46,478 nt of DNA from a virus, in UHGV virus genome UHGV-1365323; one strand, 5' to 3'. Both the position numbers and the translations under genes were made by a program. The notes beneath the pieces were generated by a model. It saw only the letters and a program-made list of their open reading frames with translations. It made no database searches and was not told where the DNA came from. Shown here piece by piece: positions 3,563-42,512 of this stretch; positions within the stretch are counted from its first letter, which is position 1, and the number at the start of each line of letters is the position of its first letter.

Positions 3563-4470
3563 AGTGCTTCAAATAGCTCTTCTGGTCTATACAGCCTTTT
3601 TCTGATGGCGACGCTGTGTCGAATATCATGACCATCATCAGTAATCAGTATCGGCAGGCCAGCATTCTCGGCGGCGCATACCTCGTCGAAATTATTATTA
3701 ATGATGCAGCGAAGTTTAGCTCGCTGTTCATCGCTCACATTGCGCACAACTTCCCACATATTTTCCGGCGACCAGCAACACCAGACATGAGCACCGGTAA
3801 GCCGGTGTGCTCGCCAGGCATCGAGGTAATCCGCAACCAGGTATGTCCACTCTGTTTTTTCACCAATCGGTGTCACTGCGCCGCGCGTAAGTCTTCCACG
3901 AGTGTATTCATGGCTAAAACCCGCGCGAAATGACACGGTTTCATCGTCTGCCAGAAAAGCCACGTTGCACGGCGACATGGTTACAGCCATATAGAGTGGG
4001 ATTGCCACCAGTTCACCAGTTTTACCGGTTATGGTGTCGCCGCCTGCTTTTTCCATGATGGCCGCCACTTCTTCTGGAGCAAGGCAGTCCGATGCACCAT
4101 TGACTTTTGGCAACTGCTTTCTAATCGCCTCAAGTTTTTCGCGTGGGTGCATGTTCAGAAATCCTCCAAGCGCCTCCAGTGCTTCAGGAAAGCTCATGCC
4201 GGAGAGTTTCATCAGCCAGTTCATGCCGCTACCGGAACCGCACTGATTGCATATTGCACCGCCATCGCCTTTTGTTTCGAAGTTGTCATCAAAACGATAC
4301 CTGTCTTTGCCAAGGCATGAAGGGCACGGCTGGTGCTTACCATTGAAAACTCTGCTATCCACATTGACGATAGACATGATGGCTGCCTGCCAGTTATTTC
4401 TCATTAGAGGCTCTATTTCCTTCCAGTCATACTTCATAAAATCTTCCTGTTGACTATGATGTAGATTCAT
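3544..4470 (-). CDS. DNA primase with an N-terminal Zn-ribbon (CPSC...CNQC) and a TOPRIM-like C-terminal half, 308 aa.
   Basis: CxxC...CxxC zinc-binding module like primase-helicase Zn-ribbons; acidic TOPRIM-like motifs (ILITDDGHD). It converges on the neighbouring rightward genes. Confidence 0.6.
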   Translation of the reverse strand: MNLHHSQQEDFMKYDWKEIEPLMRNNWQAAIMSIVNVDSRVFNGKHQPCPSCLGKDRYRFDDNFETKGDGGAICNQCGSGSGMNWLMKLSGMSFPEALEALGGFLNMHPREKLEAIRKQLPKVNGASDCLAPEEVAAIMEKAGGDTITGKTGELVAIPLYMAVTMSPCNVAFLADDETVSFRAGFSHEYTRGRLTRGAVTPIGEKTEWTYLVADYLDAWRAHRLTGAHVWCCWSPENMWEVVRNVSDEQRAKLRCIINNNFDEVCAAENAGLPILITDDGHDIRHSVAIRKRLYRPEELFEALKNKPS

Positions 4471-23046: not shown

Positions 23047-23315
23047 TGATGGATAACGAAAAACGCTATGCCTGCGAGCAATATCTTGATGCACTGGTAA
23101 CGCTGGAGTTATCCGCAAAGCTCGCCATGCTTGAGCGTCGCCCGGTAAATGGCAGCATTAAAGCGTGCTGGAAGGCTATAAGGCCGCGCATTGATAATAA
23201 ATTAAACCGCCAGATATTCGATGGCATGGCTAATCAGTTTATGCCGCATGGCGCGCTGTGTATGCTGCGCCGCCAGCTGGATGCCGCAATAAGCGAGGAT
23301 GGTGATGACCATTGA
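23043..23315 (+). CDS. Hypothetical protein, 90 aa.
   Basis: ATGA overlap with the HNH gene; followed by a terminator. Confidence 0.4.
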   Translation: MMMDNEKRYACEQYLDALVTLELSAKLAMLERRPVNGSIKACWKAIRPRIDNKLNRQIFDGMANQFMPHGALCMLRRQLDAAISEDGDDH

Positions 23316-23372
23316 TGATACTGATGCCGGTACCATTTTAAATAATCCGCGCATCTCCATTGCTGGAAAAAT

Positions 23373-23398
23373 AAACCCCCTTTCGGGGGTTTTCTTTA
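23373..23398. terminator. Bidirectional intrinsic terminator (AAACCCCC-TTTC-GGGGGTTTTCTTT).
   Basis: 8-bp G/C stem with T-runs on both strands; located at the 3' ends of both convergent transcription units. Confidence 0.65.
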
Positions 23399-24151
23399 TC
23401 ACTCAACGGTAACAACACACTTGGTTGAGTCAACGTAATCAGGGCTGGTTGCCGAGTCCATCACGCGGCAGAAGTACGTACCAGCATCGCCTGCGGCAGC
23501 ATCGCCCTTGGTGAACGTGTCGGTAGTAGCACTGCTGATCGGCGAGGTGTCTTTATACCATTGGTAGGTATAAGGCTTGACACCGCCAGCCGCAACTACC
23601 GGACCGAGCGTCAGATTGTCGTTAGTGGCAACGCTTTTGTCTGCACTGATATCAGTAGTCAGCGTCAAATCTTCGATGCTGGACACGTCAACGGTAGAGC
23701 CATCATACGGCTTGAATTCAACCGAGCCGGTGATGATGTCGTTGGTGCCGCCATCATAGCTCAGCGCAGTAATGTTGCAGTAAGCCACAACAACGGTGTT
23801 ACCGGTGGTCTGGCGAACCCAGACAGACGGCTGGCGGCGCGCTTTAACTTCGGTGACGAAATACTTGATGAGATTATGTACGCCATACTCATCAGCCTTG
23901 TCAGCCTTACGAACTTCAAAATCACCGGAAATGGTGAGGTCTGCGGTAGTGACCAGCGTCGCGACAAAGCCATCGCCATCATCAGCCTCTGAGGTAGTGG
24001 TGCTTGGGCTGAAGTCGACGCCTTTTGAGGTCATGGGAGCAAAAAACTTCCAGTCTTCCTCTGCTGGCACGGCATCCCAGCAGCCATCAGCCAGCTCGAT
24101 GAGCGACTGGCGACCTGTGATGATGCCGTTATCATTTGCACAAATAGCCAT
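23399..24151 (-). CDS. Major tail protein with a C-terminal Ig-like domain.
   Basis: C-terminal YTYQWYKD...GTYFCRV Ig-like signature; located between the connector genes and the chaperone. Confidence 0.7.
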   Translation of the reverse strand: MAICANDNGIITGRQSLIELADGCWDAVPAEEDWKFFAPMTSKGVDFSPSTTTSEADDGDGFVATLVTTADLTISGDFEVRKADKADEYGVHNLIKYFVTEVKARRQPSVWVRQTTGNTVVVAYCNITALSYDGGTNDIITGSVEFKPYDGSTVDVSSIEDLTLTTDISADKSVATNDNLTLGPVVAAGGVKPYTYQWYKDTSPISSATTDTFTKGDAAAGDAGTYFCRVMDSATSPDYVDSTKCVVTVE

Positions 24152-24196
24152 GTTTAGAATCCTCTCTGTTTAGCTAAACAATCGCATTATATCATG

Positions 24197-24225
24197 TTGA
24201 CAGGTTTTGATTGGTGGTGTAGATT
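24197..24225 (+). promoter_or_regulatory. Promoter, TTGACA-N17-TAGATT, driving the tRNA-like gene.
   Basis: Canonical -35 and 17-nt spacer; the -10 hexamer TAGATT is the same one used in the promoter family. Confidence 0.5.
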
Positions 24226-24242
24226 CGAACAAACAACACAAC

Positions 24243-24320
24243 GCACCATTAGCTCAGCAGGATAGTAGCAACGGACTTCTAATCCGTAGGTCACTGGTTC
24301 GAATCCTGTCGCGGGAACCA
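24243..24320 (+). tRNA. tRNA-Arg(TCT)-like gene; the acceptor stem does not pair, so it may be a pseudo-tRNA or a non-canonical tRNA-like RNA.
   Basis: Intact anticodon arm (ACGGA-CTTCTAA-TCCGT, anticodon TCT, U33, A37), T-arm GGTTCGAATCC, D-arm TAGCTCAGCAGGATAG, encoded CCA. Very similar to E. coli argU (recalled from memory), but the 5' strand GCACCAT cannot pair with the 3' strand CGCGGGA. Confidence 0.45.
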
Positions 24321-24704
24321 TCACTCACCAAAAACAACCCTCAGCAACAACTCATAAACCGGTCTCTGCTCTGTAGTGAGTGTTGGACGACCAAGCGGCG
24401 CCTGCAACTGAATCATGCCAATGCAACTATCAACTGGATGCTCTTTGATGTATGCGATGACATCAAGCGCTTTTGCTTTTGTCTCCTCGATGTTGTACTG
24501 ACCCTGTTGGCCGACAACATAGAGCGAAAAATAGTAATCGCCGCCGAGCCCTTTGCTTACGTTCGTGCCGCCATTGGATTGCAGCACCATAAACCGGTCT
24601 GTGCCAACTTCGCTATCGTTCCAGAACTCAAGCTGATTAGTCCACCCGTCATAAAGATGGGCATCGCTAAGGTACTGGTCAACAAGCTCAAGCATATCTC
24701 TCAT
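24321..24704 (-). CDS. Head-tail joining or tail completion protein.
   Basis: Position next to the major tail protein; size 127 aa. Confidence 0.4.
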   Translation of the reverse strand: MRDMLELVDQYLSDAHLYDGWTNQLEFWNDSEVGTDRFMVLQSNGGTNVSKGLGGDYYFSLYVVGQQGQYNIEETKAKALDVIAYIKEHPVDSCIGMIQLQAPLGRPTLTTEQRPVYELLLRVVFGE

Positions 24705-25117
24705 TTTAGCGTCATCTCTTTTTTAATTACCTGATCGACAAGCTCGCGTGTGTTTTCGCCAGCCTTGAGAAGGAATTTAGGCTCGCCGCTCTTATCCCAT
24801 ACATTTCCCTTCCCTTTGAGCCGTCCTGTGCGTGGCGTGTTTGTACCCAGCAATGTGCCAGGTGCATTATGGACATACAGTGCGTAATTGGCAGCATACC
24901 CAATCTTGCCGGTTATGCGAGTGCCTTTAACCTCAACGGTGTCATACTGGCTATTTATCAGTGTTGATGTGGCTATTGGTGTCATAGAAGCCGATTCAGT
25001 ACGGATAATAAAGTTGGCGCTCTTTATGGCCCGCACAGCCTTTTCACCAGTAATCTCGCCGACTATCTGCTGAGTGCGCTTAATAGCCTGCTGGATACCT
25101 CTCATTTTAGCGGCCAT
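24701..25117 (-). CDS. HK97 gp10-like head-tail connector protein.
   Basis: Size and position; ATGA overlaps typical of connector gene strings. Confidence 0.4.
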   Translation of the reverse strand: MAAKMRGIQQAIKRTQQIVGEITGEKAVRAIKSANFIIRTESASMTPIATSTLINSQYDTVEVKGTRITGKIGYAANYALYVHNAPGTLLGTNTPRTGRLKGKGNVWDKSGEPKFLLKAGENTRELVDQVIKKEMTLK

Positions 25118-26885: not shown

Positions 26886-27701
26886 ATGACATCTCTCGGA
26901 AAAATTTACTCAGACAAAGAAACTCGCGGCGGAATCGTGGTCAACAAAGGTTATCAGGTTCCTGTCGACCAGCTTTATCTTGAGCCGGGGTACAACATCC
27001 GCGAAGCCGATGAGCAGCACGTTGAATACTTCGCGCAGTGCTGGGAATCAGGACAGCCAATCCCGGCGTTAACTGTTATTCCTGATGCTGCCGGAAAGCG
27101 CATTAAGATTCTTGACGGCCAGCATCGTTATCTTGGCGCGCTGCGAGCTATTGAGCGCGGCGTACCAATTGCGCGCATTGAGTGCAAAGACTTCACCGGC
27201 GATGAAGCGGATAAAATCGCCTTCATGGTGTCTTCCAGTCAGGGAAAGCAGCTTGACCCGCTTGAGCGTGCAAAGGCTTATGTGCGCCTGAAAGGCTTCG
27301 GATGGACGAATGAAGAAATCGCCAAAAAGGTAGGCCGCTCAGTTTCTGATGTACAAATGCACCTGTCACTTGGTGACGTACCTGATGCCATCAAGCAACG
27401 TATCAACGCAGGCCAAATCAGCTATGCCAACGCTGTTGCAGTGGCGCGCGAGCATGGAGATGATGCCGTTAACGTTATTGATGCTGCCGTTGAGGAAGCG
27501 AAAGCGCAGGGCAAGGATAAGGTGACGGCGAAAACGCTCAAGGCAAAAAAAGTTAAACCGATTGACCGCCTGATTCAGTTGCTGAAAGAAGCAGATCACA
27601 TGGTTGTCGCTGAGGGCCACGTGGCACAGGAAACGGAAGAATTTTTGCGCCTTCCTTCCGCTGAGTTAAGTGAAGTTCTGGCTATTCTGGAGAAGTTGTG
27701 A
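26886..27701 (+). CDS. ParB/Srx-like nuclease-domain protein.
   Basis: ParB N-terminal domain signature including ILDGQHRYLGA. Start moved to the ATG behind a GAGGAAAAG Shine-Dalgarno. Confidence 0.6.
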   Translation: MTSLGKIYSDKETRGGIVVNKGYQVPVDQLYLEPGYNIREADEQHVEYFAQCWESGQPIPALTVIPDAAGKRIKILDGQHRYLGALRAIERGVPIARIECKDFTGDEADKIAFMVSSSQGKQLDPLERAKAYVRLKGFGWTNEEIAKKVGRSVSDVQMHLSLGDVPDAIKQRINAGQISYANAVAVAREHGDDAVNVIDAAVEEAKAQGKDKVTAKTLKAKKVKPIDRLIQLLKEADHMVVAEGHVAQETEEFLRLPSAELSEVLAILEKL

Positions 27702-28926: not shown

Positions 28927-28952
28927 AAAAGGGGCTTTCGCCCCTTTATTTT
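28927..28952. terminator. Strong intrinsic terminator after the capsid gene (AAAGGGGC-TTTC-GCCCCTTTATTTTT).
   Basis: 8-bp GC stem plus a long T-run on the leftward transcript. Confidence 0.65.
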
Positions 28953-30025
28953 TACAGCGCGGTTTGCGTGCCGTAGCCGTTGAAAACTTTGCTTCGACCA
29001 TTGAAATCCTTACGGATTTGCAGGCCAAAAGCTGACCACACGAGGAAGTTAAAGTTATCGTGCGGGTTGGTACGGGCTGCTGCGTAGGTGGAAACAGGTT
29101 GAGCAACACGCGGACGGATGTACATGTCGTTGCGAACGTAACCAACGAAATGGTTGCCAGTCAGCAGGAAGTTGGTGCCAATCTTGCCGATGCGACCATT
29201 GCCGAACTGCGTGATGTACTGCTCAACAGTGCCGCCTTTGAAACCGGCCGCATCAGAATACGGACGCATGAAGCTGCGGCGCACTGCCGGGGAAACCCAC
29301 AGAGTCACCTGCTCAAATACGTTCTGCGCATCCAGAATAGCCTGGAAATCCTGATTGAAGAAGGTCACGATTTTATCTGGCGTTGCGGTTTGCAGGTCGA
29401 TATCCAGGCCGGGGGAATCGGTGCTCAGGTTAACCTGAATGGTGTTCGGGTGGTTGGTGATACCGTAACCAGTGTACACGCCGTTCACGTTCAGAGTCTG
29501 GTCGCCGGTCAGCAGGTACTGCGCCATGTCGGAACGCAGGTTGAAGGTGACGTTAGCCTGGTCATCCAGCAGCGGGTCAAAACCTTCAGATTGCATACCC
29601 AGCAGTTCGCGCCATTCGCGGCTGTATCCAGTCTTAAAGATTGGAATCACATCGCCAGTGTAATCGTAGCGAGTTTTATCCAAATCTTCCGGTTCCTGAC
29701 CAGACAGGGTGCGGACGACCTTACCAGCATCGGAAGCAATGCGACTAATTGCCACGGTCTTACCGATGTTGATGTTTGCCGCGATACCCATCAGGTCAGC
29801 CATCATATCCTGACCAGCTTCGTTGCGGAAAACGCGGGTGGTGACGTTATCCACGTCGCGCCAGTAATCTTTCGTTACCAGCGCGGTGGCGTTCACACCG
29901 TAGGTTTTCGCCAGCTCAGCCTCTGCATTGCAGAACATCTTGCGGTCGATGGTCAGATGTTTCCACTGGTCAGCCACTACTGCGGAGTTGGCTACCAAGT
30001 CTTTGGTAAAAATAATCTTTTCCAT
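28952..30025 (-). CDS. Major capsid protein, 357 aa.
   Basis: Size, position downstream of the scaffold/protease and decoration genes, strong terminator immediately after, and good codon usage. Confidence 0.6.
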   Translation of the reverse strand: MEKIIFTKDLVANSAVVADQWKHLTIDRKMFCNAEAELAKTYGVNATALVTKDYWRDVDNVTTRVFRNEAGQDMMADLMGIAANINIGKTVAISRIASDAGKVVRTLSGQEPEDLDKTRYDYTGDVIPIFKTGYSREWRELLGMQSEGFDPLLDDQANVTFNLRSDMAQYLLTGDQTLNVNGVYTGYGITNHPNTIQVNLSTDSPGLDIDLQTATPDKIVTFFNQDFQAILDAQNVFEQVTLWVSPAVRRSFMRPYSDAAGFKGGTVEQYITQFGNGRIGKIGTNFLLTGNHFVGYVRNDMYIRPRVAQPVSTYAAARTNPHDNFNFLVWSAFGLQIRKDFNGRSKVFNGYGTQTAL

Positions 30026-30498
30026 TACATTTCTCCAGCAGGAATGGAAGCATTGCCAGCGCGACGAACTGCAACCAGCTCAGCGCCATCAGAGGCAACG
30101 GTATAAGTTTCATCGGAATAGAACAGGATATTTTCCTTATTAGCGGCAACTTTCAGCGCACCAGTGCCATCACTTGCCAGCGGAGTGCCTTTCTTCAATT
30201 GGGAGTTTTTAGCAACCAGTGCGTGATAGGTGACGCCAAATTCACACTGCACAGCCATGCCAGTAGCGCCAGCGGGAACATCTTCAGATACATCACCACC
30301 ACCGAGGTAGTTATGCTGGAGCACATAAGGGAAACCCTGACCACCAGCGGTAGCGTGTGCGATGATTTTGTCATCGGCAGTATCGAAGTCAACCAGTGCG
30401 CCCGGCTTCAACGCTGCCTTCATGATGCCTTCACGAATCTGCGGGTCATTTTTGCGGGCCGGGCCGCCGATGATGGTGCCATAACGGATAGTAGCCAT
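30025..30498 (-). CDS. Putative head decoration or DUF2190-like structural protein, 157 aa.
   Basis: Gly-rich; located between the scaffold gene and the capsid gene. Confidence 0.4.
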
Positions 30499-42483: not shown

Positions 42484-42512
42484 TTGACGTAGATTCTAGC
42501 ATGGCGTAGATT
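42484..42512 (+). promoter_or_regulatory. Promoter-family copy, TTGACGTAGATT-N11-TAGATT.
   Basis: Exact 12-mer; TAGATT at the -10 position with a 17-nt spacer. Confidence 0.5.

Follow-up and report, generated by a model that had tools for sequence, protein, structure and literature searches.

A probable hybrid tRNA pseudogene, formed by deletion between two adjacent tRNA genes, in a clade of Klebsiella siphophages

The intergenic region and its tRNA-like element

The DNA analysed here is a viral stretch of 46,478 nucleotides (UHGV virus genome UHGV-1365323), referred to throughout as the window, which falls within a Klebsiella siphophage clade akin to Aeromonas phage pIS4-A (genus Roufvirus), KpV2811 and ZX4, with about 93% identity over 5.4 kb. 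Between the gene for the major tail protein and the next morphogenesis gene it carries a tRNA-Arg(TCT)-like body of 78 bases on the plus strand (24243-24320), i.e., on the strand opposite to both neighbours, and in this the first-pass annotation of the locus was right (Table 1). In relatives the right-hand gene is annotated as coding for a protein of tail-to-head joining or of tail completion. At 23373-23392, shortly downstream of the major tail gene, lies a perfect 8-bp GC-rich hairpin with T runs on both strands, which resembles a bidirectional terminator.

Table 1. Coordinates of the features at the tRNA-like locus of the window
Feature	Position	Strand	Evidence or remark
Gene for the major tail protein, on the left, divergent from the promoter	23399..24151	-	phrog_853, E = 2e-90
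Sigma-70-like promoter motif TTGACA-N17-TAGATT	24197..24225	+	10/12 consensus matches; reads into the variable insert region
5' part of tRNA-Arg(UCU): acceptor 5' strand GCACCAT, D arm, anticodon arm, variable loop, T-stem 5' strand, T-loop	24243..24306	+	64/64 identical to KpnS_VR6602 tRNA-Arg (L001 1644-1721)
Anticodon TCT	24278-24280	+	window sequence
T-loop GGTTCGAATCC	24296-24306	+	11 bases, window sequence
Single copy left of the direct repeat GGTTCGAATCC (11 bases), with the probable deletion junction inside	24296..24306	+	two copies in relatives whose genes are intact
3' end of the CAT-anticodon tRNA: T-stem 3' strand TGT, acceptor 3' strand CGCGGGA, discriminator A, CCA	24307..24320	+	25/25, including the T-loop, identical to SCNJ1-C tRNA-Met
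Encoded CCA	24318-24320	+	window sequence
Right neighbour, convergent, stop codon abutting the CCA	24321..24704	-	phrog_782 (unknown function), E = 2e-39

For comparison, the corresponding intergenic region was extracted from 27 distinct related Klebsiella siphophages in GenBank and subjected to ARAGORN and to a scan for the T-loop. The promoter motif, which is the sole plus-strand promoter-like site in 23300-24800 and lies about 17 bases upstream of the tRNA-like element, had been described as the element's own promoter. While the motif itself is real, it is kept at the same position in 26 of the 27 relatives, including nine of the ten that have no tRNA at the locus, and is lost only in F14, where the region is almost wholly deleted. 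It should therefore more appropriately be considered as a putative promoter of the variable insert region and not as tRNA-specific; that it seems to belong to the tRNA is because the approximately 360 bases found between promoter and tRNA-Arg in most relatives are missing in the window, in VR6602 and in S13f. Its further designation as a family-type promoter is weak, as the window holds one exact copy and, as the only other match, a copy with one mismatch (TTGACG-N17-TAGATT, 42484-42512).

With respect to its structure, the element resembles a tRNA over most of its length. Rfam assigns it to the tRNA family RF00005 with 36.3 bits (E = 4e-4) against a gathering score of 29, so that the resemblance is more than chance, and in the alignment the anticodon arm is perfect. 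However, the alignment spans only positions 8-63 of the 71 positions of the model and leaves out the acceptor stem. In line with this, direct pairing of the putative acceptor strands GCACCAT (24243-24249) and CGCGGGA (24310-24316) yields two of seven pairs, namely C2-G71 and C4-G69, as had been noted from the letters alone. A further defect, which the first-pass annotation had not mentioned, is a U-U mismatch in the T stem (T24295 against T24307). ARAGORN, one of the checks that had been proposed, finds no tRNA gene in the whole 46.5-kb window.

The D arm calls for a different reading. It has an extra base, T24266, which had been recorded as a D-loop insertion, and its stem has a C13-U22 mismatch. 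That the extra base is part of the decay of this copy was considered and rejected, since intact, ARAGORN-called alleles share it: the 78-nt allele with the extra base and an intact acceptor stem is called as tRNA-Arg in VR6602, in SCNJ1-C and in six IMG/VR contigs, and the C13-U22 mismatch is likewise present in intact 78-nt alleles. A likeness to E. coli argU had also been pointed out. Over bases 1-67 the phage element is about 80% identical to an E. coli tRNA-Arg with anticodon TCT, from which the phage allele differs by the extra D-arm base and the window copy also by its missing acceptor stem; the best-matching gene adjoins a tRNA-Gly in one strain and is annotated as tRNA-Arg only.

The acceptor helix is absent from the predicted fold of the element, flanks included, and in a fold of 120 bases comprising both flanks neither acceptor strand finds an alternative partner. 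When compared to shuffled sequence, an intact tRNA-Arg is clearly stabilised (z = -2.24), in contrast to the window element, for which z = 0.04 whether the flanks are included or not. That the element is an unconventional tRNA-Arg that still works, its acceptor helix being formed with some other stretch of sequence or tolerating the mismatches, is hardly credible and the least probable of all readings considered here. Although the local Rfam match exceeds the gathering score, and although the equivalent element of phage vB_Kpn_ZCKp20p is named tRNA-Arg in GenBank, such a molecule would have to do with two of seven acceptor pairs, no other partner for either strand and an additional T-stem mismatch, and ARAGORN rejects both the window copy and the ZCKp20p copy.

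Two parental tRNA genes and the missing 80 bases

The comparison with homologous phages, which had likewise been proposed as a check, supplies the missing acceptor partner. At the same locus, relatives carry a tRNA-Arg(TCT) gene directly followed by a gene for a CAT-anticodon tRNA that is annotated as Met, the spacer in KpnS_VR6602 being three bases. In VR6602 the tRNA-Arg pairs perfectly both in the acceptor stem (GCACCAT/ATGGTGC) and in the T stem (ACTGG/CCAGT), is called by ARAGORN and attains 64.2 bits across the whole Rfam model. More generally, intact Arg genes reach 61.6-67.3 bits over model positions 1-71, whereas the two fused elements tested, which align solely at positions 8-63, reach 36.3 and 39.4 bits. 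The acceptor 3' strand of the window element is in turn that of the second gene: the same CAT-anticodon tRNA 3' end is found in 12 relatives and pairs with the 5' end TCCCG in the intact genes, as seen in the fold of the L002 copy.

The two parental genes have the 11-base T-loop GGTTCGAATCC in common, and its copies are 80 bases apart in VR6602, while the window has a single copy. When the window is aligned with VR6602 and pIS4-A, a single clean gap of 80 columns extends from one T-loop to the other, and seven intact relatives differ from the window over 349 columns by a single 80-base gap and 13-14 mismatches; the missing length thus equals the spacing of the repeats. The remaining copy is flanked by the Arg-type ACT upstream and by the Met/Ile2-type TGT downstream. 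Every base of the window element is accounted for by the two parental genes, without any substitution since the fusion (64/64 and 25/25), and the unpaired acceptor strands as well as the U-U mismatch in the T stem arise because halves of two different tRNAs have been joined.

Taken as a whole, these comparisons leave little doubt that the window element is a hybrid tRNA pseudogene, i.e., what a deletion between two neighbouring tRNA genes of the phage has left behind. When compared to the tandem tRNA-Arg(UCU)/CAU cassette of the Roufvirus-like Klebsiella siphophages (KpnS_VR6602, pIS4-A, SCNJ1-C, VLCpiS13f), the window has the same locus, the same flanking genes and the same promoter, but lacks the 80 bases between the T-loops, so that neither tRNA is intact. 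Of the explanations put forward in the first-pass annotation, a decaying tRNA gene was therefore the right one, although its cause, a single 80-base deletion between T-loops, had been missed. Faulty sequencing or assembly of the 5' end finds no support, as the 5' strand is that of an authentic tRNA-Arg and it is the 3' strand that is foreign; moreover, the same allele is found in a contig from the human gut (see below). A phage attachment site, in which the fragment would derive from the 3' end of a host tRNA gene, was considered briefly and not adopted, because both halves are fully explained by the phage's own two tRNA genes.

The course of events was probably as follows. In the interval that separates the major tail gene from the next morphogenesis gene, an ancestor of the phage would have carried tRNA-Arg(UCU) and, three bases downstream, the CAU-anticodon tRNA. 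A deletion between the GGTTCGAATCC repeats, which may have proceeded via replication slippage or via recombination between short homologies, two mechanisms that the sequence does not tell apart, would then have eliminated the tRNA-Arg 3' end and the spacer along with the 5' three quarters of the gene that follows, so that 64 bases from the start of tRNA-Arg now adjoin the final 14 bases of its neighbour. The upstream promoter probably still transcribes the region. From what is generally known of tRNA biology, however, the product would be without the stack of acceptor and T stem needed for processing by RNase P, for positioning of the CCA end and for charging, and is most likely non-functional. 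Both tRNAs are lost to the phage, and no other is encoded.

The cassette in related phages and the recurrence of the junction

In the 27 GenBank relatives the content of the locus varies considerably. Ten have no tRNA there, seven have Arg and Met, four have Ser, Arg and Met, and one has Thr, Arg and Met; in a further one an Arg-derived "Gly(TCC)" is followed by Met, S13d has Met only, S13c has a 3' remnant of Met, and two, ZCKp20p and ZC2, have an Arg/Met fusion as in the window. VR6602 is counted among the seven, although its Met copy, which bears an annotation, is degenerate and escapes ARAGORN. In 12 of the 27, ARAGORN calls the CAT-anticodon tRNA together with Arg or its TCC-anticodon derivative, VR6602 being a 13th that carries both. 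A second comparison set consisted of 19 IMG/VR contigs, 17 with an intact Arg 3' end and two with the fused junction, and ARAGORN places a CAT-anticodon tRNA directly after the intact Arg 3' end in 16 of the 17. Judged from gene content, the tRNA cassette is clearly dispensable and also erodes in other ways, given the ten relatives without any tRNA and the remnants in S13c and S13d.

The region as a whole (24152-24320 in the window; L001-L027 among the relatives) is hypervariable, ranging from about 75 bases in F14 to about 1,040 bases in S13e, and may contain zero to three tRNAs (Ser, Thr, Arg, Met/Ile2), small ORFs and, in S13e, an endonuclease gene. In two relatives a gene for a TnpB-family RNA-guided endonuclease is found among the connector genes, a few hundred bases from the tRNA locus (ZCKp20p, L003 2587-3685; RSU-F4K5, L015 4014-5129).

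Several of the tRNAs at this locus depart from the intact type without being fused. The second tRNA of VR6602 (L001 1725-1801; also in L033) has acceptor changes (TCACG.../...CGGTA) that break two pairs, is not called by ARAGORN and falls from 60.4 to 48.2 bits in Rfam, so that decay of the cassette seems common. The "tRNA-Gly(TCC)" of VLCpiS13a (L023 3004-3081) is a 78-nt tRNA-Arg allele in which the anticodon has changed from TCT to TCC and which has further changes in the D stem and in the acceptor 3' strand; with 44.1 bits, as compared to 61-67 for intact Arg, it may represent either a decaying copy or an anticodon switch.

The fused junction itself is present in five carriers and three sequence contexts, the first comprising the window and L029, the second ZCKp20p and ZC2, and the third L030. 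In ZCKp20p, ZC2, L029 and L030 it lies at the identical position inside GGTTCGAATCC, and as in the window these copies are not called by ARAGORN and match Rfam only locally (positions 8-63). L029 is a contig from a human gut metagenome (ENA ORCM01000302) and carries the window's own fused allele. In contrast, ZCKp20p, ZC2 and L030 have an Arg allele of the 77-nt type and other flanks and look like products of separate deletions. The fusion of ZCKp20p and ZC2 combines a 77-nt Arg allele of the pIS4-A type with the 3' flank GGGAAC-ATTAC, both as in the intact phage ZCKP8, and over the approximately 210 bases displayed the deletion is the sole difference between ZCKp20p and ZCKP8. L030 (IMGVR_UViG_3300045988_089493) has the same junction with the 77-nt-type Arg allele in yet another upstream context. 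Directly upstream of the L030 fusion, at about 4190-4220, a remnant resembling a T-arm and 3' end, GGTGGTTCGACTCCACTCACCA, can be found, which is likewise not called by ARAGORN. A scan of metagenomes for the junction returned only the L029 contig (ORCM01000302), which is already in IMG/VR.

In GenBank, the fused remnant of vB_Kpn_ZCKp20p is annotated as a 70-nt "tRNA-Arg" (L003 2010-2079; OP373729.1 25770-25839). As ARAGORN rejects it and Rfam matches it over positions 8-63 only, it is likely a misannotated pseudogene. A search of the literature found no paper discussing the tRNA of ZCKp20p and none using the phrase "hybrid tRNA".

The distribution of the junction also bears on the question of whether the deletion is an artefact of assembly or sequencing, the true phage having both tRNA genes. 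The repeats are identical and close together, which would favour such an artefact, but the same fused allele is found base for base in the independently assembled ORCM01000302, and the GenBank phages ZCKp20p and ZC2 share the junction. Furthermore, the usual assembler k-mers and sequencing reads are longer than 11 bases, and a collapse at a repeat shorter than these is unlikely. We therefore consider an artefact very improbable.

The contexts listed above suggest that the deletion occurred at least twice, and probably three times, independently, so that the 11-base repeat would represent a mutational hotspot. A single deletion event with later recombination is a less probable alternative. The identity between the window and L029 was also considered as a sign of selection or retention. 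However, while the flanks of the two differ by about 10%, the identical tract extends from 24207 to 24612 and thus reaches 290 bases into the next gene; it far exceeds the element and looks like a shared recombination block, and this interpretation was therefore rejected.

In turn, it might be argued that the fused RNA is functional though not chargeable and, with the anticodon arm, the D arm and the T-loop of tRNA-Arg(UCU) kept intact, acts as a tRNA-like decoy or sponge for host anticodon nucleases, tRNA-targeting defences or tRNA-modifying enzymes, transcribed from the adjacent promoter. The promoter motif about 17 bases upstream and the intact anticodon stem-loop would fit such a role, as would the occurrence of the junction in three contexts and of the window's allele in a divergent gut phage contig. 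Against this, the element has acquired no substitution since the fusion and shows no sign of adaptation or compensation, shuffled sequence is predicted to fold just as stably, the -35 hexamer is altered to CTGACA in L029, the identity of window and L029 runs well past the element, and most relatives carry either intact tRNAs or none. For the decoy, which the first-pass annotation had listed as one possibility, a related phage with a pairing acceptor stem had been named there as a refuting observation, and related phages do carry the same tRNA-Arg with a perfectly pairing acceptor stem; a function of this kind has to be regarded as a most doubtful proposition. The same low probability applies to the more specific suggestion that a fusion from T-loop to T-loop was retained as an uncleavable or unchargeable decoy and that this explains the same junction in three contexts: identical junctions are to be expected anyway where deletions recur between the same 11-base repeats.

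Codon use, significance and comparison with known deletions

The second tRNA of the cassette is probably not a methionine tRNA. In E. coli, the CAT-anticodon tRNA (L002 2079-2155; also in L006, L013 and others) is matched best by genes annotated in RefSeq as tRNA-Ile, with 87% identity on two chromosomes and 76% on plasmids of about 93 kb. From these matches it is probably the lysidine-dependent tRNA-Ile2 reading AUA, misnamed Met in phage records. Among enterobacterial codons, AGA and AUA are the rarest. Counted over 47 greedily chosen ORFs with a minimum length of 100 codons, the window uses AGA, AGG and ATA at 11.6, 8.6 and 13.1 per 1000 codons, respectively, and none of them occurs in the major tail gene or in the ORFs at 26886-27701, 28952-30025 and 30025-30498. 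A cassette of tRNA-Arg(UCU) for AGA and the putative Ile2 for AUA was thus plausibly useful.

The fusion has cost the phage both of these rare-codon tRNAs in one step, and the cassette is dispensable in the clade although the phage often uses AGA and AUA codons. Because the T-loop is shared, adjacent phage tRNA genes appear to constitute a hotspot for deletions. The kind of event is well known and an ordinary route of gene decay, of which the window element is a new example; as a small natural instance of the loss of a tRNA cassette its value lies mainly in annotation.

For T4-like phages, deletions that are flanked by short direct repeats and have their borders inside tRNA genes have been selected experimentally (PMC5449768). 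Replication slippage or recombination between short homologies has been documented for phage deletions bordered in this way (PMC5449768, and the classical T4 and T7 work cited there). As in the window, a short perfect direct repeat bounds the deletion, one copy of it is kept, and some of the end points fall inside tRNA genes. The two cases differ in scale and origin, as the deletions in T4-like phages comprise 6.5-10 kb and were selected in the laboratory (PMC5449768), whereas that in the window comprises 80 bases, is natural and is confined to two adjacent tRNA genes.
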